Of a stretch of 64,000 nucleotides of DNA, positions 2,658 through 22,911 are shown in pieces. A program made the position numbers and the translations under genes. Every line of letters begins with the position of its first letter. The stretch's first letter is position 1. Source of the stretch: a virus. A model generated the notes under the pieces. That model worked only from the letters and a program-made list of their open reading frames with translations, was not told where the DNA came from and did not search any database. The stretch is from the IMG/VR virus record IMGVR_UViG_3300013233_000109, positions 1 through 64,000 of that record. The stretch is one strand, 5' to 3'.

Positions 2658-2698
2658 AACCACTAAGTCTTTGAATTTAAAGGATTTAGTGGTTTTTT
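2658..2698 (+). terminator. Intrinsic terminator after thyA, between convergent operons
   Basis: AACCACTAAGTCTTT-loop-AAAGGATTTAGTGGTT stem (G.U pairs on + strand) followed by a T-run. Confidence 0.8.
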
Positions 2699-2752: not shown

Positions 2753-4342
2753 CTAGTTATACTTATTATCGTAATAATCGTTAAGCCATTTCCACTCGTA
2801 TGTTTTAAACAATTCTTTTTCATCTCCGTTAACTTTTTTGTAGTATTCCATCGCGTCAGTATATCCATTATACGTCCAGTTGTGATGAGTTGTCTTAGAC
2901 CATTTTAATAAGTGATATTCGGCTTCGGTATTACCCTTAGCTGTAGATGTTGCTGCTACTAATTTGATCACTTCGCGGAATGCGGTTCGCCATGCAGCCC
3001 ACGGTTCGTCGGCATAATTTACTGTTCCTGATAACAATGGTACTACTGTATGTTCTTGTGCTAAACTAAAGTCTATACCTTTGCCGGTATGCTGCAGTAC
3101 TAAATTTTTATTGAAACAAATCATACCCATGTGGCCGTATGTGTCATCTGTTATTGGATTATACGCATTAAATATATAATGTTTTGACTGTTGCAATCTA
3201 TCTGGCTGCCATTCCCAGTTGAAGTCATCACTTACTTTTAACTTAGCATAAGCAATAAAGAACCACGGAGTCGTTGCTTTCTTTGCGCATGCTATATAAG
3301 CTGCCAATCGCCCAGTGACATTACTTACTTGATGTACTATATTAGCACTATCTTCTGTGATACTTAATAGATGACGGTAATGATCATCGGCGTTGGATTC
3401 GCCGTTGCTCATAAACACAATGTCCATTGGCTTGTCATTATACGTTTCTCCGTATATCTTGTTAATATACGGATGATCGTATATTTCGCACTTAATACTA
3501 GTTAACGCATCCTTAGGCACAATCACTGTACTGCCACTTTTGCTTAGCGGAGTAACTGCTCTTGTTTCGCGACGCCATAGATTTACTGTTGGTAAATTCT
3601 TGAACTCGTTGCGATCTTCTATTGTGCTAGTGTATATAGCTAGTGGACCTTTGAAATAAATTTCAGGTACCGCTTCGGCATTTGTATCGTACTGATGCAA
3701 TATAACAGGAGGTTTGAATCTAGGTACTACAGTATCTTGAAAACATATTGTATCGTACCATTCTAATAATTCTGCTTGTGCTATCTGCTTATTAAATTCT
3801 GCTACGTTTACGAAAAATGTATCACCGAATTTTTGCTCGTTGCTAGGGAATACGTGAAGCATTTTATCTTGCCATTCGCTTGGATGCCAAGTGAAATCAA
3901 ACTCGCTGTAATCGCATACCGAATTTATTATCCATATATAATCTTCTGTGGATTTTGATACTATACGTTTTAATGTGCCTAGGTAATCATTAACAAATCG
4001 TGTTTTTGACACTGTGTAAGCGTCTGTAAGCCGAGATAACTGGTCATTTAGCTCTTGATTATCGTGATCTATGTATACTATATTATATGGCGTTGTGCGT
4101 GGTACCACTGGATGCGAATAATTCTTATCTGTTGCTTCGTGTTTAGGTACTAGTGTTGTTCTACTATTTTCTTGGTGCTGACTTGGCCATATGTGTACTT
4201 GCTGCGATTCCCATGGTGGTGGTTCCCATAGTAAATCAAATTCGCTGTAGTCGTTGTGATTATCTAATATCCAGCAGAAGCGTGTCCTGGATTGTGACCT
4301 TGCTTCTTCTATGGTGGTTGGGTGGTAAAATATATCAAACAT
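2753..4342 (-). CDS. Glycosyltransferase(GT-A)-like protein with internally repeated modules
   Basis: C-terminal domain (MDIVFMSNGE...AWRTAFREVIKL) is paralogous to 16101-17024; the DYSEFD..W.P..W module recurs. Confidence 0.55.
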   Translation of the reverse strand: MFDIFYHPTTIEEARSQSRTRFCWILDNHNDYSEFDLLWEPPPWESQQVHIWPSQHQENSRTTLVPKHEATDKNYSHPVVPRTTPYNIVYIDHDNQELNDQLSRLTDAYTVSKTRFVNDYLGTLKRIVSKSTEDYIWIINSVCDYSEFDFTWHPSEWQDKMLHVFPSNEQKFGDTFFVNVAEFNKQIAQAELLEWYDTICFQDTVVPRFKPPVILHQYDTNAEAVPEIYFKGPLAIYTSTIEDRNEFKNLPTVNLWRRETRAVTPLSKSGSTVIVPKDALTSIKCEIYDHPYINKIYGETYNDKPMDIVFMSNGESNADDHYRHLLSITEDSANIVHQVSNVTGRLAAYIACAKKATTPWFFIAYAKLKVSDDFNWEWQPDRLQQSKHYIFNAYNPITDDTYGHMGMICFNKNLVLQHTGKGIDFSLAQEHTVVPLLSGTVNYADEPWAAWRTAFREVIKLVAATSTAKGNTEAEYHLLKWSKTTHHNWTYNGYTDAMEYYKKVNGDEKELFKTYEWKWLNDYYDNKYN

Positions 4343-5859
4343 TACGAAATAGCCGTGAATACTTTAACACCGTATTCTTTTTCAAAGCGTTTAGCATCAC
4401 TGCGATCATTTACCATTGGTTCACCTCTTATGTTTAGTGACGTATTTAATAAAATTGGACATCCTGTTTCTTTGTACCATGCTTCTAGTAGCTTCCTAAT
4501 ATCGCTGCCGTCATCTTGTACTGTTTGTACTCTACTAGTAAAATCCTCATGCACTACAGCCGGGAATTGATCCGGCTTGCGACATTTAGCAGTCACTTGC
4601 ATATAATCACTATCGCTAAATCCTCTGGGCATAATAAAATATTCATGCACATGCTCAGCTAAAATCATTGGAGCAAATGGTCGGAACTTTTGCCTGCGTT
4701 TAATCTCGTTTACTTGATCTTTAATCTCATCGCCGCGCGGATCTGCTAACAGCGATCTGTTACCTAGCGCACGTGGTCCGAATTCTGCTTTCCCTGATGC
4801 TACACCTGCGATTTTATGTTCTTTTAGGTGCTCTACTATTTTATCCACTGGCAATTTACTACCAATGTTATACCCGTGAAATGCATTGTTCCAGTTTATT
4901 TTCTTACCATATGCTAGTGCTGCTGCGCCTAAGCTAGAACCTGCATCGCCTGGATTAGGCATTATCCATATATTATTGTAGTACTTTCCGATTAGTCTGT
5001 TAGCACTACAATTCAATGCTACTCCGCCCATGAATACTAAATTGCCACTAATATCATAATGTTTTGATTTCGCGATTACATTACTAATCATTTGTTCGAC
5101 TACATATTGCGCGCCGGCTGCTACATCAAATTCGTTAATATTTTCATCTTGTAGCGATTCTATACCGATGTGTAAATTATCATTGAACGTAGGTGGATCC
5201 ATTGTATCTACTAGATCTCTTAGTATTTTATTAGCGGACCGGTCGACTTTTCCATATGCTGCCATTCCCATTAAAATATATTCTTCATCAAGGGGGCGGA
5301 GTCCTACAGATTTTGTAACCGCACTGTAGAATAATCCTATGCTGTTAGGGTATTTTTGACTCCACATTTTTTTATACTGTGCGAACCCATCTTTATTGTA
5401 ATGTGCCTGCCATATGCTGATTGTATCCATTTCGCCAATGGCATCAATTACTACTACTGTAGCAGCACTATATTTACTAGTCTGGAATCCTGCTGCTGCG
5501 TGTGATTTGTGATGCGTGTAACTTACTACTTTTGAATTATCTAGTAGGCGACGATGATCTACGAAATGTTCTTTTAATGTTGTGCGGAGTGTTAGATGTT
5601 TATCCACTTCTTGCCCAGCACGTAATTGTCTCCACTTTTTTAACCAGTGATTTTCGTAATATGCTATAGTACCTATTTGGCCTAACGAATTAGCATATGA
5701 TATTATTTCGCTACCTACCTCTGGATCGTGCTTCTTTTTTGTAAATCGTTCGCTGTGACTAGCGAATACAATATCCCCTGTGTTAGGATTTATTACTGTA
5801 ATACCGGCATCATGGTAGCCGGCACTGATTCCTAGAATATTTTTTTTAGAAATGGTCAT
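4342..5859 (-). CDS. O-carbamoyltransferase (NodU/CmcH/TobZ family)
   Basis: Motifs ILGISAGYHDAG, HHKSHAA, VIDAIGE, MGMAAYG, GGVALNC, GDAGSSLG, EFGPRALGNRS, KRRQKFRPFAP, LLNTSLN. Confidence 0.93.
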   Translation of the reverse strand: MTISKKNILGISAGYHDAGITVINPNTGDIVFASHSERFTKKKHDPEVGSEIISYANSLGQIGTIAYYENHWLKKWRQLRAGQEVDKHLTLRTTLKEHFVDHRRLLDNSKVVSYTHHKSHAAAGFQTSKYSAATVVVIDAIGEMDTISIWQAHYNKDGFAQYKKMWSQKYPNSIGLFYSAVTKSVGLRPLDEEYILMGMAAYGKVDRSANKILRDLVDTMDPPTFNDNLHIGIESLQDENINEFDVAAGAQYVVEQMISNVIAKSKHYDISGNLVFMGGVALNCSANRLIGKYYNNIWIMPNPGDAGSSLGAAALAYGKKINWNNAFHGYNIGSKLPVDKIVEHLKEHKIAGVASGKAEFGPRALGNRSLLADPRGDEIKDQVNEIKRRQKFRPFAPMILAEHVHEYFIMPRGFSDSDYMQVTAKCRKPDQFPAVVHEDFTSRVQTVQDDGSDIRKLLEAWYKETGCPILLNTSLNIRGEPMVNDRSDAKRFEKEYGVKVFTAIS

Positions 5860-6025
5860 CTCTGTTTTTTAAATCCTTTATTATTGTTTCTCTCTCAGTG
5901 TCGGTTATATTTAACCACTGTGCTACTTCAGTTTTAGTGCGTTTACATCCGACGCAATATCCGGTGCGAATGTCAATGCGGCATAATCCTATACACGGTG
6001 AGGTTTCTAGTGCATGCGGCATCAT
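5846..6025 (-). CDS. DUF1289-like small Cys-rich (predicted Fe-S) protein, 59 aa, absent from the ORF track
   Basis: Hand translation MMPHALETSPCIGLCRIDIRTGYCVGCKRTKTEVAQWLNITDTERETIIKDLKNRDDHF*; SPCxxxC...CxGCxRT..E..W pattern; overlaps both neighbours. Confidence 0.8.
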   Translation of the reverse strand: MMPHALETSPCIGLCRIDIRTGYCVGCKRTKTEVAQWLNITDTERETIIKDLKNRDDHF

Positions 6026-6141
6026 CGGTACGTAAATGGATCGCGCTTCTTGAGCTCTTTGAGTTTCTTTCTGTAGCGTAATTCTAGTTTAATTTTTCTA
6101 TAAAGTTTTGCTATTGGATTGTTTTTCCATATGTTTTTCAT
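6022..6141 (-). CDS. 39-aa basic peptide, absent from the ORF track
   Basis: MKNIWKNNPIAKLYRKIKLELRYRKKLKELKKRDPFTYR*; ATGA overlaps at both ends imply translational coupling. Confidence 0.7.
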   Translation of the reverse strand: MKNIWKNNPIAKLYRKIKLELRYRKKLKELKKRDPFTYR

Positions 6142-7241
6142 TTTGCTAGTGCCTCAATTTGTTGTTCTTTGTAATCACTGTCGCTCCAGTGATATGGATA
6201 TTCTGCGTAATTATCTTTAGTTTTTATACTACTTACATCTAAGTATTTAAACAATTTCTCCCATATTATAGAATAATCAGTAGTGCCAAATGAACGTTCT
6301 AAATCTACTTGGCCTACTTGCGGGTGACCTATTGTTAGCGATTTATCATCTGGATCAAATCCGTTGTTAATTAACCATTTTTTAAAGTTAGCTAATTCAG
6401 TTTTCATGAATTCGTATTCGCCTGGGTTATTGGCCCATTCAATATCAAAGTCACCAGCGGCTTCGGTTTGCGAGCTCAATGTTGTAGTAGTTAATTTGTC
6501 TATATCTTGGCCTTCTTCATCCTGAAATACCTCCCAGTGATGTTTGCCAATTGCTTTGTTTACGCCAACAAACACACCGCCTAGTGGTCTAGCTAAGGTA
6601 TCTACTCCGAATGATTCGTAATCTGATTCTGTTAACTTAAACCGCGGTGCTTGTAAATAACACATTAACTGACTTGGACGCATCCATTCAGGCGCATATT
6701 CTTTCTTGCGATAGCTTAACGCCCAGGATTCAAATTCGTGGCATAATAGATTTAATTGCCTAATGTTCCATTTTGTGTTTGCATCTGCGTTATTATAGAA
6801 TACTGACATATTATTGCTTGTTCCTTGCAAATCTTCAAAGTATTTGTGTAACTGATTCATCTTATCGTGTACTAGTTTGCGGCCGGGCAGTCCGTCGCCG
6901 ATAGCACCGTTGTGATCTTGTATACAGTTTTCCATACTAAAATGATCATCTATTGAATATCCCAAGTCTGCGTTGTTTATGGCATCGCATGTGACGTTCA
7001 TTTGTGCTGTTAGCATTTCTCCATTGCGGGCGTACTCTGGAATGCCGAAAAATTGATAGTTTTTTTCTAAGTGTAGCTTATTTTTAATAATATCGTTAAA
7101 CGCATTGTACCATTTTACGCTCAGTGGATCAGTGTATACGTCAATATACACTGGCATTGTTTCGCTAGTGTCTCTATTTTTTAACGTCATTACTATTGTA
7201 TCAGTTAATTCCTTGGTACCATTCATGTGCTTCGCTGTCAT
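6138..7241 (-). CDS. Hypothetical protein in the radical-SAM operon
   Basis: 367-aa ORF overlapping neighbours; His/Glu motifs LHKYFE, LCHEFE, GKHHWEVFQDE. Exact start uncertain. Confidence 0.75.
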   Translation of the reverse strand: MTAKHMNGTKELTDTIVMTLKNRDTSETMPVYIDVYTDPLSVKWYNAFNDIIKNKLHLEKNYQFFGIPEYARNGEMLTAQMNVTCDAINNADLGYSIDDHFSMENCIQDHNGAIGDGLPGRKLVHDKMNQLHKYFEDLQGTSNNMSVFYNNADANTKWNIRQLNLLCHEFESWALSYRKKEYAPEWMRPSQLMCYLQAPRFKLTESDYESFGVDTLARPLGGVFVGVNKAIGKHHWEVFQDEEGQDIDKLTTTTLSSQTEAAGDFDIEWANNPGEYEFMKTELANFKKWLINNGFDPDDKSLTIGHPQVGQVDLERSFGTTDYSIIWEKLFKYLDVSSIKTKDNYAEYPYHWSDSDYKEQQIEALAK

Positions 7242-8532
7242 TGTCTTTTAATATCTCTGCTAATGTGCTGTCGCCTGGGCGGATTGCTTCTATTTTTTCT
7301 ATACGTGTCTTGCCTTTTATTGCACCTGCTTTATATGTATCGCTAAATTCTTCCTCGAACACAGGGCGGCTCCACAAATTATTCATCATATCTATTATTG
7401 ACTGCTGCTTGCTAGAATATCCTTTGGCATTGGCATAATCTAAGAACTCTTTAATTATACGATGTAATATGCTTTTGGGCAATGATAATGGTGACATTAA
7501 TATATCTGGGCCAAATGCGAACGTTATCTTGCTTAATATTGTAGTGTTTAATTCCTTGGATAGATTAAACATATTTTTTAACTCGAATAATCCTGGCAAT
7601 GTTAACGTAAAATCTAATCGCATTTTACGAGGGTGGCCATTACTTAATTCTTGCCCTTGTTTGTAATATGCTAGGAACTGATTGTAATCTAGTCCTGTTC
7701 TAATGTACTCTCCTATTTTGCCCGTGCCGTCGATGCTAGCACATATCTGCCAATCTCGTATATTTGGTAATATGTCTGTGAATAAATTAGTGCCTTTGTA
7801 TTCTATTCTTGATAAATTAGTATTATAACGTGCGTATACTTTGTGTCCGTCATTTAATTCTACAATGCGATTCATATACTTCCAGTGCTGCTCGAACATC
7901 AAGGGCTCGCCGCCTACCCAGTATATTTCCTCAATGCGATGTTCCTCTACGGCGTTGCTGAATTCTTGTTCGATCTGATTGTCTTGAAACGTTGATATTT
8001 TTTTGCGAACGTCGGGCTTCATCCAGTTATTTTTTGGATTATCGTAATTAATCATGCCGTGCTTGCGTTGCTCACTTTCCCAGGAGCTACTTAGCATATC
8101 CCCGCATTGGCGGCATTTGAAGTTGCATAGATTACTAAAGCGATAATCCCAGCTCACTGTTTTTAGTGTTGTGTATCCGTGTTCGTTCGTGTTATCCCAT
8201 ATACTATCGTATTTGTGATTAAATAGTCTATCAAAATATGTCCGGTAAACGTCAGTGTTAAGTAGTTTGTCATTGCATACTTCGCACTCTGACAATGTCT
8301 CACCTGCCATCATGCGCTTGCGTACTGATTTCATGTGCTCGCTGTTCCAGTGTTCCTCTAGCGATTGCGGATTGTATTGCCCGGTGCCTGTTGCGGTGTC
8401 TATGTACTGCTCGAATGATTGCGCTGGCTCACGTGACGCGCAACACATTCTGCGCTCTGTTTGTGGTGAGAGATAGGTGTGTGTCCACGGTGCTAGACAT
8501 AATGTTGATGGCTTATCTAGGGGCTTTTTCAT
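7201..8532 (-). CDS. Radical SAM protein with N-terminal SPASM/twitch-like domain (type A)
   Basis: CLAPW, MCC, ECEVC; SNLCNFKCRQC (CxxxCxxC); GGEPL; YNTN. Confidence 0.9.
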   Translation of the reverse strand: MKKPLDKPSTLCLAPWTHTYLSPQTERRMCCASREPAQSFEQYIDTATGTGQYNPQSLEEHWNSEHMKSVRKRMMAGETLSECEVCNDKLLNTDVYRTYFDRLFNHKYDSIWDNTNEHGYTTLKTVSWDYRFSNLCNFKCRQCGDMLSSSWESEQRKHGMINYDNPKNNWMKPDVRKKISTFQDNQIEQEFSNAVEEHRIEEIYWVGGEPLMFEQHWKYMNRIVELNDGHKVYARYNTNLSRIEYKGTNLFTDILPNIRDWQICASIDGTGKIGEYIRTGLDYNQFLAYYKQGQELSNGHPRKMRLDFTLTLPGLFELKNMFNLSKELNTTILSKITFAFGPDILMSPLSLPKSILHRIIKEFLDYANAKGYSSKQQSIIDMMNNLWSRPVFEEEFSDTYKAGAIKGKTRIEKIEAIRPGDSTLAEILKDNDSEAHEWYQGIN

Positions 8533-9724
8533 ATAATACCTTATATAATTCTCTATGCGTTGTTTCTAAGCTAACACCGCGGCGGTTATCTAGCTGATTT
8601 ATATTTTGTAGCAATTCTACCTGCGATACTTTTGCTGGCGCTTCTATGAATTTTGCTATAGAATTGAACTCTCGCTGTACTGCTTCTGTTTGATTGCTTG
8701 GCACTGTTAATCTTGCTTTTGCTACTTGCTTAGCTAGTGGTGGGAGCGATTGTATGCAGTTATGCGGGGCGTCGTGTAACATATTCCAGTGTACTAAATC
8801 AAAATCTGCAAAATGTTCCCATGATGTGATGTCATGCAGATACAATACATTGTATATATTTATAGTGACGCATAACTGTAATGCTATATTTTTTGACGTA
8901 TTGCGCAAAATCATGAACTTTTTTATGTTGCGATTTACTTCATCCCAGCTAGCATTTGTACGCTCGTATTCAAATCGTTTCCCTACGTTATCAATACTAA
9001 ATGCGATTTCAACGTGCTTAAAATGTTCCCATACTTTAATGTATTCTTCCGGCCATTGTGTGCCGTTGGTATTGTAATGTATGCTAACATGCTTGGCCCT
9101 ATTACTATCTACTAGGCGCTGTAAGTACTGAAAATGTTCTTTAATTAAGAATGGTTCGCCACCTGTGAATTCTAAGTATTCTATTTGTGGACTAAGCTGA
9201 TCTAATTCGTTCCAGAATGCGCTTGCGTTGCGTGGCCATTGCCCGTGCTGTTTCATTTCATAATGAAAGCTTTTCTTTTTATCCCCCGTGACAAATCTTA
9301 GCTCTTCTCCGGCAAAGTTACTTGAACTCCAGCTACCGCATATACGACATTTTAAATTGCATATATTTCCTAGTTTTAAATCTAAAAATGATAGCGTATT
9401 ACTTTCTGTTGACCATTCTGATTTAGCAATAATGTCGCTAAGTCTATTTTGTGTATTTTGTCGCTTGCTAGTTCTACCGCTGTCTTCTTCATCCCAGCAC
9501 TTTCTGCAAGTCTTAGGGCGATTTCCTAGTAAAAATTGACCACGTAATTCTGTCATGTAGTTACTATCTTGGATGTCGGCCAACGATGCGGTGTTTAAAT
9601 CAAATTTATCGCCGTAGTTATCTACTATCTCATCGTCAGCTAAACAGCATGGGCGCACTGTTCCTATTGGGCTCGCTTCAAGTGATAACCACGGTAGAAC
9701 GCAAAATGTTTTATTTGGTATCAT
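8513..9724 (-). CDS. Radical SAM protein with N-terminal SPASM/twitch-like domain (type A)
   Basis: CVLPW, RPCC, CRKCW; GNICNLKCRIC; TGGEPF; YNTNG; FSID. Confidence 0.9.
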   Translation of the reverse strand: MIPNKTFCVLPWLSLEASPIGTVRPCCLADDEIVDNYGDKFDLNTASLADIQDSNYMTELRGQFLLGNRPKTCRKCWDEEDSGRTSKRQNTQNRLSDIIAKSEWSTESNTLSFLDLKLGNICNLKCRICGSWSSSNFAGEELRFVTGDKKKSFHYEMKQHGQWPRNASAFWNELDQLSPQIEYLEFTGGEPFLIKEHFQYLQRLVDSNRAKHVSIHYNTNGTQWPEEYIKVWEHFKHVEIAFSIDNVGKRFEYERTNASWDEVNRNIKKFMILRNTSKNIALQLCVTINIYNVLYLHDITSWEHFADFDLVHWNMLHDAPHNCIQSLPPLAKQVAKARLTVPSNQTEAVQREFNSIAKFIEAPAKVSQVELLQNINQLDNRRGVSLETTHRELYKVLYEKAPR

Positions 9725-11352
9725 AAATCTTTTAACTCTGGTATGCCTTCAAAGAATATCTCGTTGCGTATACTATCTAACTCTTCTATGCGTTTACGAA
9801 ACTCCGGCAATAAATGTGTATTGTCTGTTGCATCTAGAAATGTTATTGCGCTCTCGAATCCTGTAGTGGCACGATTTAATCTGTCCTTGCCTGCTAGCCA
9901 TTTGATGTGATCATCAAATGATTTGCGTATTTTATCTTTGTATGCTGGCGTAGCTATGTCTATTCTATAATGTGGAGGATCTTGTAATATATTCACATTC
10001 AGATCTTGCGGCTTTAATAACCCTTTTTCTACCCAATCCTTGTGAAAGTCGGCTACGTGTAGCGCATTCATTATGCTCACTGTCGGGCTGATGTAGAAAT
10101 CTACGCATGGGCATACTTCAAGCATACGTCTTCTATTTGCTTCTACATCAGCCCATTTAGTACCTGTTCGTATATACTCTGCGTGGGTGCCCATTGCATC
10201 CAAACTCGCACCAACACTAACACTATCAAACTTTTTCCAGTAATCAAATACATCCCGATCTTTCAGTTTAACTTGAGTAAAGTTAGTGTTGTATATCAAC
10301 CGTACATGAAACATCTCGCGACGTTCTAGTTCGTCTAGAATCTTGTAATGCTCTTCCATTGTCAGTGGTTCACCACCCGCAAAGTATATCTGTTCAACAT
10401 GCTCGATGTGTTCCATTACTTGTTCAAACATGTCTGTTTTGTATTGTCCGGCATAATTTAATGCGGTGTGCTTGTCGCCCCAGGTATTATCACCATGCAG
10501 CTTACTTAACGCAATCTGATCTTTATACCACGAGCTGCTGAATATATGCCCGCAACTTCGACAGCTTAAATTACATAGATTTGAGAATCTTACGTCCCAG
10601 TATGTCATCTCAAATCTATCTAGGTGGCCGTCTGCTTTTGTTTCTGCTACACGTTTTATATGATGCCCGTGGTGCTTATTAGCTGATTTCCTACCGCTAA
10701 AGAACCCACTTGCTTCTTGCTCGTAGCATTTGCTGCACATCGGGTTATCTGTATTAGACATCATATCTACTCGTAATTGTTTCATTTTTAGCGAGTTCCA
10801 TATCGTAGCTAAGCTATTTTCTTTTGTATTACCTACGCTACCGACTTTCATATCACTGTGACAACACGGCCATGTTTCGCCAGTTGGAAAAGTATGCAGG
10901 TGATTCCACGGATATATACAGAATGTTTTACTTTGTGTTAACATAAATTCTTCGTCGCTAGTTAACTCTGATAACGCAATACCTAGTGGTAACACAGAAT
11001 TATATGTTTGTCTTAATTCACTTGCTGCTACAATTATTGTGTCAGTGGCTAGCTGTACTTCGCAATGCGATTCAAATTTATTGTTTGTTACTATTATTAT
11101 AAAACATGGCGTAATGTCAACTTCGGCTATAAGCGATGCTAGTGTACTATATAAATTAGCATCGCCTTGCACTAACAGTGATATTATTACACGCTCAGAT
11201 GGTGTGTACGTTGATCTATGTGCGTTTAATAATTGTGTGCGTAACCATTCGTACCTGGCGTATATGGGCTGCGCAAACCAATTATCAAGATTTATTGTAG
11301 CTACTATATCATATTCGCTATTTAGTGTTGCTACTATTTGTGATTTATTCAT
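9721..11352 (-). CDS. Radical SAM/SPASM-twitch protein (type A) with ~130-aa N-terminal extension
   Basis: CIYPW, WPCC, CSKCY; SNLCNLSCRSC; AGGEPL; YNTN; ASLD. Confidence 0.9.
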   Translation of the reverse strand: MNKSQIVATLNSEYDIVATINLDNWFAQPIYARYEWLRTQLLNAHRSTYTPSERVIISLLVQGDANLYSTLASLIAEVDITPCFIIIVTNNKFESHCEVQLATDTIIVAASELRQTYNSVLPLGIALSELTSDEEFMLTQSKTFCIYPWNHLHTFPTGETWPCCHSDMKVGSVGNTKENSLATIWNSLKMKQLRVDMMSNTDNPMCSKCYEQEASGFFSGRKSANKHHGHHIKRVAETKADGHLDRFEMTYWDVRFSNLCNLSCRSCGHIFSSSWYKDQIALSKLHGDNTWGDKHTALNYAGQYKTDMFEQVMEHIEHVEQIYFAGGEPLTMEEHYKILDELERREMFHVRLIYNTNFTQVKLKDRDVFDYWKKFDSVSVGASLDAMGTHAEYIRTGTKWADVEANRRRMLEVCPCVDFYISPTVSIMNALHVADFHKDWVEKGLLKPQDLNVNILQDPPHYRIDIATPAYKDKIRKSFDDHIKWLAGKDRLNRATTGFESAITFLDATDNTHLLPEFRKRIEELDSIRNEIFFEGIPELKDL

Positions 11353-11353
11353 C

Positions 11354-11602
11354 CTAACTCCATTTTAATTGAAACATTGGTAAACTTGATTCATTTGTTA
11401 ACTCTACTATCATCCCGGTGCGAACTCCTGTGTTTGTTTCTGCTAGCCATTTGTCTAACACATCTTCATTTAATGCCCAGTAGCGCCAATCGCGTAATAA
11501 TACAGCGTTGCTGCTCGCCACAAGCATAAAACGTGTTATAGACTCGTGTACCATTCTGCTAAATCGTTCTATTGATCGTCGTAGCTTGTAACTTATGTGC
11601 AA
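11354..11602 (-). CDS. Small hypothetical protein (start uncertain)
   Basis: Fills the operon gap; ends FQLKWS just before the SD of the next gene. Confidence 0.55.
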   Translation of the reverse strand: MHISYKLRRSIERFSRMVHESITRFMLVASSNAVLLRDWRYWALNEDVLDKWLAETNTGVRTGMIVELTNESSLPMFQLKWS

Positions 11603-12227
11603 TTGTTTGACAAGACCATTCCGTGTATAGTTTACGCACTAATTCAAGGTTTAACGCTAGCCCCATAATGAGATTTATTTTTTTAATTTCTGCCAGAAAT
11701 AACGTAACGTTAGCGAAACTCTCGTACGGGAAGTTGATTTCCTCTTTTATTTGGGCCATGAGCGGGTGTTTTGATAATCGCTCAATTGCACGCTTCTCTT
11801 TATTTATATCTAGCGAGTATCCTTTAACACGTTGATTATCAAGTAACTTCTGCTCGTCACTTCGACTCACCGAAATGTTAATTATATATTTCCAAAATAT
11901 ACTTCCGTACAGTACGTCGATGTCATTATCTAAGTCAGTTGGATGTTGAGGCATGATTAGGCCTAGATTGGAGCTTTCGTACATATGAAATGGTATATGC
12001 CCGTAGTGACCGGATATTATTGTAATTTCGTTACTGTGCCATTTGCCGTTACTAGTGTGGAATGATAACGAATGATTAATAAACCGTTGGGATTCATTTA
12101 CTTTATTTCGGTAATCAGTTTGTGTATTGCATGCATCACCGATAACTGTTTTTTCACTTAGTGTTAATGCCTTATATAACAAGTTTCCTGAACTACCAGG
12201 TAAATATCGAATCAATGCTAATAACAC
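11559..12227 (-). CDS. Hypothetical protein with sulfotransferase/P-loop-like N-terminus
   Basis: AGGAG SD plus GTG start; YLPGSSGNLL motif resembles YPPGAYGHYI in 49896-50771. Confidence 0.55.
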   Translation of the reverse strand: MLLALIRYLPGSSGNLLYKALTLSEKTVIGDACNTQTDYRNKVNESQRFINHSLSFHTSNGKWHSNEITIISGHYGHIPFHMYESSNLGLIMPQHPTDLDNDIDVLYGSIFWKYIINISVSRSDEQKLLDNQRVKGYSLDINKEKRAIERLSKHPLMAQIKEEINFPYESFANVTLFLAEIKKINLIMGLALNLELVRKLYTEWSCQTIAHKLQATTINRTI

Positions 12228-12249
12228 TATTGCAACTCCTGCGATTCTT

Positions 12250-13605
12250 TCATAAGTTCGTGTACCATTCTGCTAAATCCGGGAAGGTTTCTTTGAAGTT
12301 TTTGCCTCTGCGTTTATCGTATTGTTCGAAGAATTTTTTAAAGTCATTGTGCAATGATGGCATATCAAATGTTCCATCGTGCGGTGTCTTTACTACATCT
12401 AAATAATCTATTAATCGCTGTAATTGATTTAATTCCATTTGGTGTAGCAGTTTATTATCTTTGTTAGTATCTAACCACTTTTGCAGGTCTTCTTTGTACT
12501 TAGTTCTTATATTGTCGGGCAGGATTAATGCGCTCTGGAATGATGGAAAACGTAATATGTTCAACGAGAACGTTGGATAATCTTTGCCATGCGTTTTCTT
12601 TATGCGTAATACATAATTTAAGAAATCTGGTAGTGTGTCTAAACATAACGCATTCACCGTGCACATCATGTGAAATCCTTGTACGCTGCCTTTTGTTAAT
12701 ATTTTATCTACGTTTCCTGCCCACCGATCCCATACTAAACCATCTCGGATATATTCTGCTTGCTCGAACATGCTCTCATTGCTAGTGTATAACTGGAAGT
12801 TTTTTATTCCGTGACTAGCATCTATTAGCTTATCTATTAACGCATCTTTGGCACCTAGATTGGTATTTATAGCAAACTGCATATCTGTTTTCTTCTTTGT
12901 AAACCATTCTAATAATCTAAACGTGTGCTTTGACATGAGTGGCTCACCACCTGTTAAACGTAGTTCTTGTAATGATTCGTGGAGGTCAGATTCCCACCAT
13001 TTAAAGAATGCTTCTACGTACGGATTTGTTTCATCTTTAGCGAATGGTTCTGCGCTGTCGTGCGTGTGTGTAAAGTGATTACGACCGTCACTTACTAAGT
13101 CCACAAACGGTCCGTTGACTTTTAAATCTTTGACCCATTCTGTACTAAATGCAGGATTACAATAGCTGCAACTAAAATTACATGTGCGGTCAAAAGCAAT
13201 TTCCAAAGTCTTAAGATTAACGTCGGTTGATTCTGCTTCCATTTTTGAAACGTATTCTACGTCTTTGTCATCATAAATTACACTCTTATATACTCTGTCA
13301 GATATATTATCGCGGCCGATGTCTTCGACTTTCCAGCAGTACTGACATCCTGCTGGGCGTTCGTTGTTTTGCATCTGCTTGCGTTCTGCTTTCTTTTGCT
13401 GTGTGTTGTGTATTGCTGCTGGATTATCTTTAATTTCATTAATATTTATTTGATGTGGTAGTGGATGATGGCAGCTGGTTGTTTGTCCACTTCCTAGCCA
13501 TATAGTGGCATTATACCATTTAGCTAAGCAAAGAGAAGTACTGTATGAATTAAGATAATCTCTTATTTCTAGATCGGTTTTTCTTGTTTCTTTTCTTAAA
13601 CTCAT
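12250..13605 (-). CDS. Radical SAM/SPASM-twitch protein (type B)
   Basis: CLAKW, SCHHP, GCQYCW; RTCNFSCSYC; TGGEPL; INTN. Confidence 0.9.
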   Translation of the reverse strand: MSLRKETRKTDLEIRDYLNSYSTSLCLAKWYNATIWLGSGQTTSCHHPLPHQININEIKDNPAAIHNTQQKKAERKQMQNNERPAGCQYCWKVEDIGRDNISDRVYKSVIYDDKDVEYVSKMEAESTDVNLKTLEIAFDRTCNFSCSYCNPAFSTEWVKDLKVNGPFVDLVSDGRNHFTHTHDSAEPFAKDETNPYVEAFFKWWESDLHESLQELRLTGGEPLMSKHTFRLLEWFTKKKTDMQFAINTNLGAKDALIDKLIDASHGIKNFQLYTSNESMFEQAEYIRDGLVWDRWAGNVDKILTKGSVQGFHMMCTVNALCLDTLPDFLNYVLRIKKTHGKDYPTFSLNILRFPSFQSALILPDNIRTKYKEDLQKWLDTNKDNKLLHQMELNQLQRLIDYLDVVKTPHDGTFDMPSLHNDFKKFFEQYDKRRGKNFKETFPDLAEWYTNL

Positions 13606-14750
13606 TTACTGTGCCCCGGGATATTGTCCTCAATTAAGAATTTTAGTTCATCTGGTACAGCTAACTTATTCCGTAAACTGAATTGCTTAAAGAATGATTG
13701 CTGATCTGTTCTAAGATCGTTATTGTACACTGTATTAGTTAACAGATTTATTATAATTTGCAGTAATTCCGATTCATCACTGCTCTTGTGTTTAACGCAA
13801 TCTAGTATCGATTGCGCTTTTATTTTTTCAGAGGGGGTTAAAATCTCAAAACTGTTAACACGCGGTGTTTTGCAATTCTCTAAGCTCCACAAAATTCTTC
13901 CGGGATATTGTTCCTTTATTTTATATATATATTTATGTAACTCGTTAAGACCCCATACTGTGTGTGCTGTTATCAATGACAGGAACCTTATTTGGACTGT
14001 TGTATTATCTAATAGCCAGTGTAAATTACTATTGAATAAATTAAAATCAAATCCTGCACGAATGTACGATGTAATTCCTGGGCTAGCATCTATACTTGGC
14101 TGAATTTCAATAATTGCGTCTTTTGATAACAGTGTGTTTATAATCTCTTTGCTTTTAAAGTTAAGATTAGTGGCTACCCGGACGGTAAGACCATCTATGT
14201 CAATTTGATCTATCAACTCGCTAAACAACGGAGTAATAAATGGTTCGCCACCTAATATAGTTAGCATACTAGCTGGTTTATTGCTATTATAATAAGATAC
14301 TAACTTATTAAGGAGCGAACCGGTGTTGCTATGTATAAAATTTAGTTGGTGTGCGTCAAATTTTATGTCGTACGGACCATTTGTTTTAAGGTCTCCTTCC
14401 CACTGCGAACTAAAAGCAGAATTACAGTAAGCACAAGTAAAATTACACAGGTTTCCTATGTTGAGTTGCAAACGATCAATTGCTAAACTCCCGGCCCACT
14501 CTCTGAGTTTAATATGCCGCATTGATTCTTTTCCATTCTCTTCAGTCTTCCAGCAATAATTGCATGACGCGTCCTTAATTCCTGCTAGCAAATTGCTACG
14601 CTGATGTGCTAACGTGTTAGCTACATCTTCGCCCTGCACAGGGATTGCTAGTGCTCGGCAACACCCGTACAAGTAATTTGACCGCGGGTTGTATACCACT
14701 TCTTGCCACTTTGCTGGGCAAAATGAATGCTTGTTTTTATCTGTGAGCAT
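13602..14750 (-). CDS. Radical SAM/SPASM-twitch protein (type B, divergent; start revised to ATG 14750)
   Basis: CPAKW, GCC, SCNYCW; NLCNFTCAYC; LGGEPF; the ATG is preceded by TGTAAATA. Confidence 0.88.
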   Translation of the reverse strand: MLTDKNKHSFCPAKWQEVVYNPRSNYLYGCCRALAIPVQGEDVANTLAHQRSNLLAGIKDASCNYCWKTEENGKESMRHIKLREWAGSLAIDRLQLNIGNLCNFTCAYCNSAFSSQWEGDLKTNGPYDIKFDAHQLNFIHSNTGSLLNKLVSYYNSNKPASMLTILGGEPFITPLFSELIDQIDIDGLTVRVATNLNFKSKEIINTLLSKDAIIEIQPSIDASPGITSYIRAGFDFNLFNSNLHWLLDNTTVQIRFLSLITAHTVWGLNELHKYIYKIKEQYPGRILWSLENCKTPRVNSFEILTPSEKIKAQSILDCVKHKSSDESELLQIIINLLTNTVYNNDLRTDQQSFFKQFSLRNKLAVPDELKFLIEDNIPGHSK

Positions 14751-16107
14751 AGTATTTACATTCTTCCCAAAATGTTTGTAACTCCGGAAAATAATCCAGG
14801 AAATTTTCATTGTGTCTATTATCTGCTTCTTTGAAGAAATTATAGAAATTTGCTTTCTTTTGTTCTACATTATCTGTGCTATTACGCATCCACGCAATGT
14901 CTCTGTCTAAGCGGGCTATTTCGTAATCTTTGAATCCATGATAGCGATTAGCACTTGTTTCTATGTTATCTTCCATGAACATTTTAATTTTTTCTAACTC
15001 AGCAGTGTATTGCTCAGGTAATATTTGCATACTTTGCCACTCAGGTGTACGCAATACTGGCGTGTCAAACCACACACGCTGATAATCTTTGCTATGTGTT
15101 TTGCGTAATAATAAAATACCTTCTATTAATTTGTTGAGATTTTGGATAGATAGATTATTCATTGTTATTATAAATGTAATACTACTGTAATTTGGCACTT
15201 CTGTCAAGTACTGATTTACTCTTTCCCATAATAAATCAAAATCTAGTCCGTGGCGTATATATTCTGCTTGCTTGCCCCAGGTGTCTACAGAGACGTATTG
15301 CATAAAATGTTCTATCTTCCCTGTAGTTAATTGCTTAACATATCCTAGGTACTTATCCCATAACTTTTGCTCCACTGATAAATTACTTGTTACGTTTAAG
15401 TGTAGATCGCTCTTTGGATTTGCTAATACATAATCAAATACTTTATATGTGTTTTTATCCATTAATGGCTCACCGCCTGTCATTCTAAAATGTATTAAAT
15501 CTTTATATAGTTCCGGCCACCATTCCCAGAACGCATTAACATACGGGTTATCTTCGCTATGTGGAATTACTCTGCGTTTGCCTGTGAAATATTGCGGATC
15601 GTTGTGCGGGGGTTGTGTCGGGTAGGCTCCGTGCTGCTTAACTTCTCCCATCCACTTAGAGGAAAACTGCGGGGAGCAATATGAACAGGCTAAATTACAC
15701 GCATTATTAAAATTAACCTCAACATACGACGGCGTTGTGTTGGCTAGCGGATTAGCTACTATGGTATCAAAATCTTTTGCTGCCCATGGCTCGCCTGATC
15801 TATAATGTCTGTCACTTAGCTTGTTATTATCTTCCATATCCCAGCAATAGCTACATTCTGCAGGGCGTTCGCCATTGATCATTTGCTTGCGTGCTACTGC
15901 TTTTTCTTTAGTGTTATGCAGGGCGCTCGGATCTAATTTTATATCATCTATGCTAATTTGATGTAAAGGGGGGTGATAGCAACTATTATTAAGTCCGGTG
16001 GGCAGATGTAAGCTTAGTTGTTTCCACTTAGCTAAGCACATGCTAGGGCTCACGGTTGCTAGCTTTTCCTTGGCTTTTTCTGCGTCGCTTAGAAACTTAC
16101 TTACCAT
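14737..16107 (-). CDS. Radical SAM/SPASM-twitch protein (type B)
   Basis: CLAKW, SCYHP, ECSYCW; NACNLACSYC; TGGEPL; VTSN; VSVD. Confidence 0.9.
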   Translation of the reverse strand: MVSKFLSDAEKAKEKLATVSPSMCLAKWKQLSLHLPTGLNNSCYHPPLHQISIDDIKLDPSALHNTKEKAVARKQMINGERPAECSYCWDMEDNNKLSDRHYRSGEPWAAKDFDTIVANPLANTTPSYVEVNFNNACNLACSYCSPQFSSKWMGEVKQHGAYPTQPPHNDPQYFTGKRRVIPHSEDNPYVNAFWEWWPELYKDLIHFRMTGGEPLMDKNTYKVFDYVLANPKSDLHLNVTSNLSVEQKLWDKYLGYVKQLTTGKIEHFMQYVSVDTWGKQAEYIRHGLDFDLLWERVNQYLTEVPNYSSITFIITMNNLSIQNLNKLIEGILLLRKTHSKDYQRVWFDTPVLRTPEWQSMQILPEQYTAELEKIKMFMEDNIETSANRYHGFKDYEIARLDRDIAWMRNSTDNVEQKKANFYNFFKEADNRHNENFLDYFPELQTFWEECKYYAHR

Positions 16108-17024
16108 CCTTCTTGGTTCCGTATCACGTCGATTTCGCGCACGGTTGCTCCTTTATTATGCCAGTTAGATTGATAGTGATGCTTAAAGAAAGCACTAGCA
16201 CTAGCGTCAGGCGTTATGATGGGAAGATCTAGCTGTGTTTTTAATTCCCTGCCGATTTCTAGTAACATTGTTGGTAAATCAGTTACTTGCGATTTGTAAA
16301 TCTCTGCTAGCTTCGCAAAATCTTGTACATCTTTATAATCCCAATCACTTAACATAGTCATTTGTGTTCCCATACGTGCGCCAAGTTGCGCGTACAAGCC
16401 GTATTCAACATCGCTGCCTACATTGTGCCATATGCTTAAATGATCCATATTACGTTTATGCACACTATCTTTAAAATCAATCAATGATGGTTTTGTTCCT
16501 CTATTTAAACACATTTTTACGCCTTCACGGAAACCTGCGCGCCATGCGTGAAACTTGCTGCCGTTTGGGTATGTTGTGCTATAACAATCATGCATTGCCC
16601 AGTACAGGGGGTCAAAACAAAACTCTACATCAGTATCATCGCTGCCATCGGATGCTTCATGTGTTTTCATATTATATATAAAGTCTTTAGTCCAGCAACT
16701 AATTCCGCCATTACCATACATTAATCCGTTAATGTGGTTTCTTGCACGCCAACGATACACTGCTTTATTGTACTGGTCGTCTTTGATATCTAATACTAAA
16801 TTAAAAAAGTACGGGTCGGGAAGATTGTCGCCATCGATTAAAATAAATCTGTCGGTTGTACTAGCGTCAGCTGCGGCTTTATGTGCGGCATCGCTACCCT
16901 TGACTCCGTCTACTCTTGTGGCCCATGGAATCATGTTTTTTATTTTTACCCAGTATTCTTCCTTCTGTGGCTCGTCATAACTTAAATAGATACAATCCAT
17001 GTCTGCGATATCAATCTGTCTCAT
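16101..17024 (-). CDS. Glycosyltransferase GT-A-like protein
   Basis: DCIYLSYDEP, RVDGVKGSDAAHKAAA, FILIDGDN (DxD), YGNGG, AWRAGFREGVK. Confidence 0.65.
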   Translation of the reverse strand: MRQIDIADMDCIYLSYDEPQKEEYWVKIKNMIPWATRVDGVKGSDAAHKAAADASTTDRFILIDGDNLPDPYFFNLVLDIKDDQYNKAVYRWRARNHINGLMYGNGGISCWTKDFIYNMKTHEASDGSDDTDVEFCFDPLYWAMHDCYSTTYPNGSKFHAWRAGFREGVKMCLNRGTKPSLIDFKDSVHKRNMDHLSIWHNVGSDVEYGLYAQLGARMGTQMTMLSDWDYKDVQDFAKLAEIYKSQVTDLPTMLLEIGRELKTQLDLPIITPDASASAFFKHHYQSNWHNKGATVREIDVIRNQEGW

Positions 17025-17364: not shown

Positions 17365-18148
17365 TAATTACCTCGCTAAATTGTTTTATATTATAATGAA
17401 ATGGATACTGCTGATCTATTGTGTTAATTCTTATATTCGATCCACTAAATTCATAAATCATTTCTTTGGTCCAGTCTTCGGATTGCAGCCAATTTATTCG
17501 CCCTTTCATATGTATCAATGTTGGATAGCTAGTACTTGGTAATGTTACAGTATCTACTCCAATCGCTAGTGCTGCTAACGCATAAACTAAATCTGTAGTT
17601 CCGTGATCTGTTTTGCCTAGCTTTATTTTTGTCTGTACTTCTTCCCAATTCTCAAATAATTCACGTACTGTTGCGAAGAATTTTGCTGCGGTTTTGCTAA
17701 ATCTCCAGTACGTTATAGCATTGTATACGTCCGGTAATTTGTTGGCGTCAAATATTTTTCTATAATGGCGCTCGGTTGTTAGCTCATTTTTGTAATTACG
17801 TGCGCCTATTGTTAATACTACATCGCGTTTCCGTAACATTGTCCACCAGTGATCTATACTATGCGGAATTATCATATCTGCTTCGATTTTTATTGTCTCG
17901 CGAAATGGACTTGCTGCGAATACTTGCCAGTCATTTGCGTACGGATTTTCAGTGTTAACTGGATAGGGGAATTTTATTATGTAATCAAAAATAGTATTAT
18001 CTATGGTATCATTTGTTAGTATTGCTATTTTTGCAGCAGGGGTGTGAATCTTTATACTTCTTGCACACGCTATCGCACAATTAACGTAATCTACATCCGC
18101 TGTATTACTTGCTACTATTAAATATCCTTGCTCAGCTAATATCGGCAT
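17333..18148 (-). CDS. Glycosyltransferase GT-A-like protein
   Basis: GYLIVA..YVNCAIACARSIK, SPFRETIKIEADM (ExD), YNAITYW, DLVYALA, FHY; paralogue of 18132-18956. Confidence 0.7.
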   Translation of the reverse strand: MPILAEQGYLIVASNTADVDYVNCAIACARSIKIHTPAAKIAILTNDTIDNTIFDYIIKFPYPVNTENPYANDWQVFAASPFRETIKIEADMIIPHSIDHWWTMLRKRDVVLTIGARNYKNELTTERHYRKIFDANKLPDVYNAITYWRFSKTAAKFFATVRELFENWEEVQTKIKLGKTDHGTTDLVYALAALAIGVDTVTLPSTSYPTLIHMKGRINWLQSEDWTKEMIYEFSGSNIRINTIDQQYPFHYNIKQFSEVINAQYNKHNIR

Positions 18149-18956
18149 TTATCATATCCTCCATTGCGAATTTATTTAAACAGTGAAAATCTGTTGTTAC
18201 TATCGATCGCATTAGTCGCATTTTGTTCCTGGACCATTTTTCATATGTTATCTCAAATTCAGTGTCAGATAGCTGTGTGGCGTATATGTCGTTTAATGCT
18301 GTAGGCAAATGCCAGGGGATGGTTGGTATTGCATCTAGTCTGTGACCGTGCATTATTGATTGCGCTATACTTACTGCATAATCATTCCTGTACGGTAGTG
18401 AATTAAATTTATATATATTACTGTAGAATTTATAATTATCTTTTATCATTGTTATTGTATCGAACATTTCTTTTGCGAAGTCACTTTTGCGGAAATATAA
18501 TATAGTTGCCCAGTAATGTGGCATTTTTGTTTGGCCAAATGTTTGATACGCCGATAAACTATTTTTACTGGCTACATCGTATACATTCCTGTGACAGAGA
18601 AAATCATGTGGATTATTAAATAATTTGTTTAGCTGATCTGAATTAACAATGTAATCACTGTCGATTACTACTGTTTCGTCATATGGGCTAATGTCGTATG
18701 CTTGGTATCGGTTTACATTGTACCAGTGATCTATTTTATCTTTAGTGTGTATATCGAAATTACGCTTAGATTTTGTCTCTGCTTCGGCTATTACTATATT
18801 ATGTTTAATATTTTTATCAGCTAGTGAGTTTGTATCTGTTACTATTGTTGTCGGCTTATCTAAGAAGCGCGAAATGCGATCTGCTACCCACACTGCTTGC
18901 GATAAATAATCTAATGTTTTATTATTAAATGCGAATATTAAAAAGCCTTGGCTCAT
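18132..18956 (-). CDS. Glycosyltransferase GT-A-like protein (start revised to ATG 18956)
   Basis: GFLIFAFN..YLSQA, SPYDETVVIDSDY (DxD), YWATILYF, YRNDYAVSIA, FHCLNK; ATGA overlap with upstream gene. Confidence 0.72.
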   Translation of the reverse strand: MSQGFLIFAFNNKTLDYLSQAVWVADRISRFLDKPTTIVTDTNSLADKNIKHNIVIAEAETKSKRNFDIHTKDKIDHWYNVNRYQAYDISPYDETVVIDSDYIVNSDQLNKLFNNPHDFLCHRNVYDVASKNSLSAYQTFGQTKMPHYWATILYFRKSDFAKEMFDTITMIKDNYKFYSNIYKFNSLPYRNDYAVSIAQSIMHGHRLDAIPTIPWHLPTALNDIYATQLSDTEFEITYEKWSRNKMRLMRSIVTTDFHCLNKFAMEDMINADIS

Positions 18957-19249
18957 CGTTGCTTCTGTAATGTTTCGTATTCTGCGTGCCATGCGTTCAA
19001 TTGTTCTTGATACCGCATTGCTGCTTCGGTGTGTAATTCGCTTGGTTTAACTTTACATGGATTTCCGTACTCGTCGAGTAATACAATTTCTCTTGCTGTT
19101 CCGTACACTAGCGTTAATGCTAATATTTCAGGGCCGGCTTTCCACATGCCCTCAAATGCTGTAAATAGCATTTTTGCTTCGTATTTTTCCGTAAGTGTTT
19201 GCTTTGCTGCTTCGTGGTCGAATCGTGCTTTTATTGTGTCTGCTATCAT
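18953..19249 (-). CDS. Hypothetical protein, first gene of the modification operon (start revised to ATG 19249)
   Basis: MIADTIKARF...; the longer TTG start in the track lies inside the promoter spacer. Confidence 0.7.
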   Translation of the reverse strand: MIADTIKARFDHEAAKQTLTEKYEAKMLFTAFEGMWKAGPEILALTLVYGTAREIVLLDEYGNPCKVKPSELHTEAAMRYQEQLNAWHAEYETLQKQR

Positions 19250-19273
19250 ATTAGTATTTACACCTCTTTTACT

Positions 19274-19302
19274 AGTATAACATAATTTGATACGCAAGTC
19301 AA
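19274..19302 (-). promoter_or_regulatory. Sigma70-type promoter for the GT/radical-SAM operon
   Basis: TTGACT-17 nt-TATACT on the minus strand. Confidence 0.75.
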
Positions 19303-19331
19303 AATAAAAGAGCTATAAAAGCCCTTTTATT
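19303..19331 (-). terminator. Intrinsic terminator ending the tail-fibre transcription unit
   Basis: AATAAAAGGGC-TTTTATA-GCTCTTTTATT on minus strand (G.U only in this orientation), running into TTTTATTTT. Confidence 0.75.
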
Positions 19332-20310: not shown

Positions 20311-20330
20311 ATATTATTTTCCTATTTAAA

Positions 20331-22910: not shown

Positions 22911-22911
22911 A

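Follow-up and report, generated by a model that had tools for sequence, protein, structure and literature searches.

An operon of N-twitch radical SAM enzymes, GT8- and GT-A-like transferases and a carbamoyltransferase in a T4-type phage: a possible pathway for building and editing a glycan

Virus-encoded glycosylation is known from the Mimivirus fibril glycosylation clusters and from the virions of mycobacteriophages. Neither in these systems nor in that of chlorovirus PBCV-1, which encodes A64R, do we know of radical S-adenosylmethionine (SAM) enzymes or a carbamoyltransferase, and our searches found none. Both kinds of enzyme occur, together with glycosyltransferase (GT)-like proteins, in an operon at positions 2753-19297 (minus strand) of the DNA analysed here, bases 1-64000 of the 72,894-bp IMG/VR virus record IMGVR_UViG_3300013233_000109 (CheckV completeness 21%; hereafter the window). 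Like the chlorovirus, Mimivirus and mycobacteriophage systems, this locus places virus-borne soluble transferases, joined in relatives by rare-sugar genes, beside structural genes; it differs from them in that a virion glycan is here a prediction. We propose that the operon encodes a soluble pathway which assembles a short glycan and then modifies it through radical chemistry, most likely on a virion acceptor. Taken as a whole, this explanation comes close to an even chance and falls just short of it.

The operon comprises 18 co-oriented open reading frames (ORFs), 16 of at least 75 aa and two smaller ones (59 and 39 aa), which overlap by 1-74 nt or are separated by gaps of 1-22 nt. Tail-fibre genes (19357-24399) adjoin it on the upstream side, and at its other end a hairpin (2658-2694) sets it apart from the convergent dhfr and thyA genes. 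Elsewhere the window carries T4-type core genes (portal, prohead protease, baseplate, gp55-like late sigma factor, SbcCD and endonuclease VII), and its portal shares about 50% identity with the portals of jumbo myoviruses, PA5oct and Atu_ph07 among them. A megablast search with the whole operon region found no match among phage records. The operon is as a first-pass annotation of this DNA had observed it, composed of radical SAM enzymes, transferases, a carbamoyltransferase, small proteins and uncharacterized proteins, and it is not a chance arrangement, because the module recurs in related phages.

All six of the CxxxCxxC enzymes that the first-pass annotation had read as radical SAM paralogues are full-length matches to the NCBIfam family NF033640 (N_Twi_rSAM). 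The curated cut-off of 170 bits is exceeded by five of them (288-390.9 bits), and the copy at 13602-14810 lies below it at 148.1 bits. Invariant in all six are C122, C126 and C129 of the CxxxCxxC motif, G188, G189, E190 and P191 of a GGEP motif, and four N-terminal cysteines (C8, C26, C73 and C76). Pfam SPASM matches precede the core in three of them (residues 12-87, 8-77 and 145-210), and an auxiliary iron-sulfur domain of twitch/SPASM-like type is predicted N-terminal to the radical SAM core. In their full-length matches and in the position of this domain the enzymes agree with NF033640; what sets them apart is their number, with six in this one operon and with 8-14 matches in each complete relative, spread beyond the main operon. 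The pairwise identity of the six is only 20-27%, and the paralogues are therefore old and distinct.

BtrN is a 'twitch' enzyme with a single auxiliary cluster. The operon enzymes share with it and with the other sugar- or nucleotide-acting enzymes BlsE, MoaA and viperin a weak similarity in PDB and profile comparisons (E 0.003 to 0.56), NCBIfam side matches included, but their domain order is reversed. The best PDB match, 8VPO, which the accessible part of its description gives as a peptide-modifying SPASM enzyme of cyclopropyl-synthase type, was aligned over the core only and proved uninformative. Literature searches, with supplements outside their scope, found neither a characterised member nor a function of NF033640. 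Individual paralogues have features of their own. Radical SAM 4 carries a 140-aa N-terminal extension, and its orthologues fall into two length classes, about 427 aa and 557-573 aa; radical SAM 2 has relatives in only two of the 49 related loci described below (L009 and L032, 36-38% identity); radical SAM 3 is 53% identical to a gene of the cultured Ralstonia phage RsoM2USA; and for radical SAM 5 a database search found over 7,600 relatives (E 1e-5 or better).

The GT-like proteins picked out earlier from their motifs showed GT-A/GT8 character in profile and structure comparisons, which support the assignment of three putative soluble transferases, two GT8-like and one with a DxD motif. The GT8-like transferases A and B are paralogues encoded by adjacent genes. 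Neither has a Pfam match even at E 10; a joint profile of the two matched 19 PDB entries, all glycogenins, with a best E of only 0.026 and an alignment over the DxD region. In the DxD transferase, D64, G65 and D66 do not vary among 18 sequences and stand at the end of a predicted strand (residues 59-64). Its top Foldseek row is A64R of chlorovirus PBCV-1, and a PDB profile search with it gave no usable match. The C-terminal domain of the 529-aa protein is related to this transferase (BLASTP E 0.001) and has AKL at the DxD position in 6 of 6 aligned sequences.

The enzyme previously assigned to the NodU/CmcH type proved to be a member of the TobZ/NodU/CmcH carbamoyltransferase family, with both Pfam domains above their cut-offs (Carbam_trans_C 168.1 bits, cut-off 27; Carbam_trans_N 122.9 bits, cut-off 24), a match to phrog_1601 (E 1.6e-100) and PDB homologues at E 6e-44 to 3e-30, among them GdmN, NovN and TobZ. 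Identity with NodU itself was rejected, since the score against the NodU equivalog NF041651 was 120.1 bits against a cut-off of 1000, and only the wider family can be assigned. The operon enzyme is shorter than TobZ (505 against 576 residues), and it differs from TobZ, NodU, CmcH, GdmN and NovN in that a conserved small peptide precedes it, as it does two homologues on bacterial contigs.

A scan of IMG/VR with one of the radical SAM enzymes as query yielded 49 related loci, in which core radical SAM orthologues were counted at at least 45% identity over at least half the length. All five core orthologues are present in 31 of the 49, which bears out the expectation that the genes would co-occur in relatives; of the other loci, most are truncated by a contig end or by the limit set on the flanks, and eight (L050-L057) are only distantly related. 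The DxD transferase, the 367-aa protein and the carbamoyltransferase accompany the five enzymes in 22 of the 31, and 18 of the 31 have the full set, with both GT8-like genes and both small proteins as well. Gene order is kept among the relatives, and there too the module lies downstream of fibre genes. A reduced module also follows the fibre genes of RsoM2USA, with two GT8-like genes, a DxD transferase (37% identity), one radical SAM gene (39%) and a second protein of the DxD family; elsewhere in that genome a radical SAM gene (53%) stands beside genes for a carbamoyltransferase (45%) and DUF6071 proteins. In its accessible portion, the RsoM2USA paper covers abundant virion bands only and contains neither 'radical' nor 'carbamoyl'. 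No description of a phage module combining radical SAM enzymes, GTs and a carbamoyltransferase was found in the literature searches, in agreement with the earlier statement that no characterised pathway has this composition.

Table 1. Features of the operon and its surroundings in the window (counts of loci refer to the 49 related loci)
Feature	Position	Strand	Evidence and remarks
529-aa protein: duplicated N-terminal domain and C-terminal domain related to the protein at 16101-17024	2753..4342	-	7/49 loci
TobZ/NodU/CmcH-family carbamoyltransferase, 505 aa	4342..5859	-	Pfam, PHROG, PDB; 26/49 loci
DUF1289 small Cys-rich protein, 59 aa	5846..6025	-	PF06945, E 2e-18, 66.4 bits; 3/49 loci
Near-invariant basic peptide, 39 aa, ending KRDPF(I/T)Y plus one residue	6022..6141	-	32/49 loci
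Conserved uncharacterized protein, 367 aa: predicted cyclophilin-like barrel with helical insert	6138..7241	-	Predicted fold
N-twitch radical SAM 6, 443 aa, core paralogue	7201..8532	-	NF033640, 288 bits; 34/49 loci
N-twitch radical SAM 5, 403 aa, core paralogue	8513..9724	-	NF033640, 336.9 bits; 38/49 loci
N-twitch radical SAM 4, 543 aa, core paralogue	9721..11352	-	NF033640, 390.9 bits, residues 141-542; 41/49 loci
82-aa ORF, this genome only, uncertain gene	11354..11602	-	0/49 loci; no family match
222-aa protein	11559..12227	-	0/49 loci; no family match
N-twitch radical SAM 3, 451 aa, core paralogue	12250..13605	-	NF033640, 318.8 bits; 40/49 loci
N-twitch radical SAM 2, 402 aa, lineage-specific extra copy	13602..14810	-	NF033640, 148.1 bits; all Cys motifs present
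N-twitch radical SAM 1, 456 aa, core paralogue	14737..16107	-	NF033640, 328.8 bits; 38/49 loci
Putative DxD transferase, GT-A-like N-terminal half, 307 aa, new family	16101..17024	-	DxD motif
Small conserved folded protein, 117 aa	17011..17364	-	30/49 loci
Putative GT8-like transferase B, 271 aa	17333..18148	-	phrog_1903, E 1.2e-6; 31/49 loci
Putative GT8-like transferase A, 286 aa	18132..18992	-	phrog_1903; 30/49 loci
Small conserved protein, about 98 aa from ATG at 19249 (listed from TTG at 19297)	18953..19249	-	27/49 loci
Ser/Thr-rich fibre-like protein, 317 aa	19357..20310	-	Directly upstream of operon; candidate acceptor
Hairpin between convergent thyA and operon end	2658..2694	.	15-bp stem, then T run
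Terminator-like hairpin between fibre gene and operon	19303..19331	-	12-bp stem, -12.7 kcal/mol
Sigma-70-like promoter	19274..19302	-	TTGACT, 17 nt with TG, TATACT; 10/12 consensus positions
CATAAATA sites	21801-21808, 24424-24431, 40444-40451, 47802-47809	-	Directly 5' of genes
CATAAATA sites	55252-55259, 56684-56691, 58998-59005, 60744-60751	+	Directly 5' of genes

The company that these genes keep was surveyed in 103 ORFs inserted into the operons of 19 relatives, and in neighbouring genes. Several insertions encode sugar enzymes, namely NAD epimerase/dehydratases, DegT/PseC-like aminotransferases, NeuD/VioB-type acetyltransferases and, in five loci, a 138-aa nucleotidyltransferase like RfaE domain II and TagD. 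Others encode an FkbM methyltransferase, cupins, class I methyltransferases, and B12-dependent and other radical SAM enzymes. A further group would serve radical SAM chemistry itself: the SAM synthetase MetK in five loci (433.9 bits, above its cut-off), a nucleosidase of the methylthioadenosine/S-adenosylhomocysteine (5'-deoxyadenosine) type in eight, a SUF-type iron-sulfur assembly protein in three, and a FdxA ferredoxin and a ferredoxin reductase.

Bacterial homologues of the radical SAM enzymes (33-50% identity) come mostly from metagenome-assembled genomes (MAGs) of Bdellovibrionota, some of them on megabase contigs. Five of the six bacterial loci examined contain genes for GT2, UDP-sugar dehydrogenase, AsnB-like, PMT_2, UDPGP, DegT and carbamoyltransferase proteins, an ABC-2 exporter and more radical SAM enzymes. 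Chromosomal N-twitch radical SAM genes were seen in the polysaccharide-type loci L120, L131, L085, L117 and L124, with six in a row-like arrangement in L131. In Vibrio phage K566, which belongs to a different lineage, a block (L007, 8732-20011) interleaves four N-twitch-like radical SAM genes with two GT8 genes that are significant in Pfam and one GT4-like gene; Vibrio phage K567 likewise carries four such radical SAM genes with GT8 genes. This company is an association and not proof, and it supports sugars as the substrate class. The reading of the operon as a cluster that builds and tailors a glycan, already put forward in the first-pass annotation, is well supported, because the module recurs, relatives add sugar and radical SAM-support genes, and bacterial homologues lie in polysaccharide loci; the GT character of the transferases and the K566 block agree with it. 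We consider the sugar-pathway part of the explanation probable.

We infer the individual reactions, their order and the acceptor from gene content, motifs, family membership, synteny and the company of sugar enzymes. The three transferases would move sugars from nucleotide-sugars to an acceptor in the cytoplasm. The five conserved N-twitch enzymes and the one extra copy may each carry out a different step that begins with hydrogen-atom abstraction from a sugar, with oxidation, epimerisation, deoxygenation and C-C bond formation as candidates. The TobZ-type enzyme would O-carbamoylate a hydroxyl group, and lineage-specific genes could add further decorations. We favour a virion protein as the acceptor, in particular the Ser/Thr-rich fibre protein whose gene lies just upstream, so that the particle would gain a variable sugar coat.

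A hydropathy scan, a crude method, found two or more transmembrane (TM)-like segments in none of 16 window proteins and in 5 of 692 ORFs of relatives, all five of 101-112 aa. The lack of a polytopic membrane protein in the operon makes a lipid-linked polysaccharide pathway of its own unlikely and a cytoplasmic acceptor probable. That the acceptor belongs to the virion is a best guess which rests mainly on position, and taken by itself we hold it somewhat more tentatively than an even chance would warrant. Fibre genes precede the module not only in the window but also in relatives and in RsoM2USA. The fibre-like protein at 19357-20310 has a serine plus threonine content of 25%, the top value among 25 window proteins compared, and an orthologue immediately before the module in 25 of the 49 loci; profile searches assigned it to no family. 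Further, protein-glycosylating GT8 enzymes exist, such as glycogenin and GlyE, the latter in row 35 of the Foldseek listing.

Several observations weigh against this proposal. In Gram-negative bacteria the substrate of GT8 enzymes is commonly the core of lipopolysaccharide (LPS), and the K566 block, which adjoins a PagP-annotated gene and an LpxC match (E 1.3e-40), also points to LPS. The N-twitch genes scattered through complete relatives stand in unrelated contexts, and the near-invariant 39-aa peptide has no role in a glycan or virion model. Operon position is itself weak evidence, because DNA-glycosylation clusters also lie near structural genes (Pyle et al. preprint, in its accessible part). 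The transcription signals add to these points. Late-promoter motifs had been cited in favour of virion proteins, a claim that did not hold for the operon. The T4 late motif TATAAATA was found 8 times against 14.4 expected and is not enriched, nor is TAAATAC. At 8 of its 9 sites the motif CATAAATA immediately precedes a fibre, baseplate, portal or neighbouring gene, and it is probably the late promoter core of the phage; its count does not exceed chance (9 found, 9.0 expected). Its sole copy in the operon is inside a coding region, and the operon start has instead a sigma-70-like promoter behind a hairpin; late co-expression of the operon with the fibres is therefore unsupported. This hairpin (19303-19331) has a z of -4.6, with 0 of 200 shuffles folding as well, and GC-rich hairpins occupy the same spot in many relatives. 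Sigma-70-like matches are frequent by chance (76 found, 67 expected), and a TGT(T)ATAAT-like element occurs at the promoter spot in a subset of relatives.

The main rival acceptor is host LPS, because of the PagP and LpxC genes beside the K566 block. Working on the inner side of the membrane, the GT8-like and radical SAM enzymes would then modify a lipid-linked glycan, the LPS core or another, and this remodelling of the envelope would block superinfection or prevent new particles from adhering to debris. TM segments are not required by the bacterial GT8 enzymes that act on the LPS core, bacterial homologues of the radical SAM enzymes lie in surface-polysaccharide loci, and the sigma-70-like promoter would permit early expression. 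However, the PagP/LpxC adjacency comes from one distant phage lineage only, the phage operons contain no initiating phosphoglycosyl transferase, flippase, polymerase or exporter as judged by the hydropathy scan, and this reading does not account for the link to fibre genes that the window shares with 25 of 49 loci and with RsoM2USA. Overall, we regard an envelope target as unlikely.

The 39-aa peptide is at the centre of a second alternative. Its start overlaps the stop of the 367-aa gene, and in relatives it usually lies 3' of that gene and 5' of MetK or the carbamoyltransferase. In 26 distinct sequences L27, L30, D34, P35, F36 and Y38 are invariant, and because synonymous codon differences far outnumber non-synonymous ones in pairwise comparison of the last 17 codons (1977 against 417), the peptide is translated and strongly constrained. 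It is kept in the distant L056/L057 cluster, together with seven N-twitch radical SAM genes; BLAST detected neither the 367-aa protein nor the carbamoyltransferase in that cluster. On the bacterial MAG contigs L124 and L128 it directly precedes a carbamoyltransferase homologue (41-44% identity). To judge from these patterns, it may be a small subunit or a substrate.

If it were a precursor or acceptor, the radical SAM enzymes could cross-link or oxidise its DPF(I/T)Y end, with glycosylation and carbamoylation to follow. The invariant D-P-F-x-Y, the purifying selection and the persistence of the peptide in 32 of 49 loci and beside the N-twitch genes of L056/L057 favour this idea, and twitch and SPASM enzymes often act on peptides. 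In mycofactocin biosynthesis, according to the accessible part of PMC7491314, a precursor peptide (MftA) is combined with a radical SAM enzyme (MftC) and a glycosyltransferase (MftF). The operon resembles that system in having a small conserved peptide with a near-C-terminal Tyr, radical SAM enzymes and glycosyltransferases, but no sequence relationship was found, and the operon has no recognition-element (RRE) protein, peptidase or flavoenzyme. Pfam detects no RRE/PqqD domain or peptidase in the window proteins; the peptide is very basic and its whole C-terminal half is invariant, unlike most precursors. Moreover, a small subunit would fit its place before the carbamoyltransferase gene in the two bacterial contigs equally well, and the rich company of sugar-nucleotide genes suits a glycan better. 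A peptide-centred product is thus quite improbable; if real, it would be a phage-encoded glycosylated, ribosomally made and modified peptide (RiPP), cofactor or effector, a kind of molecule with no known viral example.

A free secondary metabolite, that is, a diffusible pseudo-oligosaccharide or nucleoside-like compound acting on the host or on competitors, seems very unlikely. The closest solved carbamoyltransferases (TobZ, GdmN and NovN) tailor antibiotics, the weak similarities of the radical SAM enzymes include BtrN and BlsE, and all operon proteins are soluble; on the other hand, no exporter or self-resistance gene was seen in the operon, the conserved link to fibre genes would go unexplained, and GT8-like enzymes usually act on macromolecular acceptors.

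Least probable of all is hypermodification of DNA, in which the transferases would glycosylate a modified base and the radical SAM enzymes and carbamoyltransferase decorate that sugar. The thyA and dhfr genes next to the operon end in the window could suggest it, but thyA adjacency occurs in only 2 of 49 loci. The three diagnostic positions of ThyA, in E. coli numbering, were mapped by motif, and at all of them the window ThyA has the residues canonical for true thymidylate synthases (Leu-x-x-Cys, Asp and Asn). These positions separate thymidylate synthases from dCMP hydroxymethylases and hydroxylases, as stated in the accessible part of Lee et al. 2026 (PMC13326640), which also describes arabinosylated 5-hydroxycytosine. 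Five large relatives that carry the module were compared, of which two are 91% and 100% complete. One has a ThyA-family gene and four have ThyX; none has a C5 DNA methyltransferase (the control was positive in 9 of 14 genomes), and none has Tet/JBP, a weak result since its control was silent. From what is accessible of the Pyle et al. preprint, phage GT-A and GT-B enzymes put diverse glycans on 5-hydroxymethylcytosine, and their clusters can adjoin structural genes. The described clusters (Pyle et al.; Lee et al. 2026) thus share with the operon GT-A-like enzymes and sugar-nucleotide genes, sometimes near structural genes, but they need a ThyA-type hydroxylase or hydroxymethylase, or a C5 methyltransferase with a dioxygenase, which here and in relatives are absent or canonical; the accessible texts of both sources mention neither 'radical' nor 'carbamoyl'. 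DNA glycosylation by known routes is disfavoured. The window thyA (1573-2607, plus strand), a canonical thymidylate synthase, has an insertion of about 40 residues (roughly 194-233) between its conserved halves.

If the proposed glycan pathway exists, uncultured giant phages of a very common group devote 16-30 kb, with as many as 14 radical SAM genes in a genome, to a sugar decoration made by undescribed chemistry, for which some of these phages bring their own SAM synthetase, by-product nucleosidase, ferredoxin and iron-sulfur assembly genes. It would give the large uncharacterised family NF033640 its first functions, extend the virus-encoded glycosylation of chloroviruses, giant viruses and mycobacteriophages to radical sugar editing, and reveal in jumbo phages a hypervariable determinant of the surface or of host interaction. 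The question is directly testable, because cultured phages with reduced versions of the module exist.

Multiple radical SAM genes in one phage genome have been seen elsewhere; in its accessible part, a marine survey reports a T4-like environmental genome with 12 (PMC5332604). The complete relative G002 (328,292 bp with terminal repeats; L132-L136, for example) has 14 NF033640 matches, 11 of them above the cut-off. Six of its radical SAM copies lie outside the main operon, among genes for replication, recombination and packaging (terminase); the contexts of these six were checked as a clue to the target and were uninformative. DUF6071 proteins recur beside N-twitch radical SAM and carbamoyltransferase genes, at L008 11126-15134 (RsoM2USA), L124 13934-14671 (a bacterial island) and L132 985-1686 (G002).

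Of the remaining operon proteins, the small Cys-rich one noted earlier was identified as DUF1289. For the 367-aa protein, the PDB profile search and the Atlas gave nothing usable, Foldseek had no match at E <=0.001, and tblastn against phage records found none. It has relatives of 712-775 aa (P0202, P0208, P0216, P0219, P0231, P0234 and P0261), which carry about 400 extra N-terminal residues without a Pfam match. The 222-aa protein, described in the first-pass annotation as sulfotransferase-like, has no sulfotransferase profile match, nor any match in Pfam (even at E 10), NCBIfam or PHROG, and shows no similarity to the Sulfotransfer_3-like protein of G002; what is left of that claim is a weak lead from the Atlas, where the nearest named clusters are DUF2972 (0.94) and Sulfotransfer_1 (0.92, 135 shared features). 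The protein at 18953-19249 matched no family in Pfam, NCBIfam and PHROG searches; its orthologues align from about residue 12-22 of the listed frame, and AAGAGG precedes the ATG. The 117-aa protein has a globular conservation pattern, unlike that of a precursor peptide. Outside the operon, a virion structural protein of 3979 aa (phrog_10938; 25086-37025, minus strand) lies between the baseplate and fibre genes, and a 683-aa protein (47848-49899, plus strand), far longer than T4 gp55, has gp55-like late-sigma matches at both ends (residues 17-247 and 577-656).

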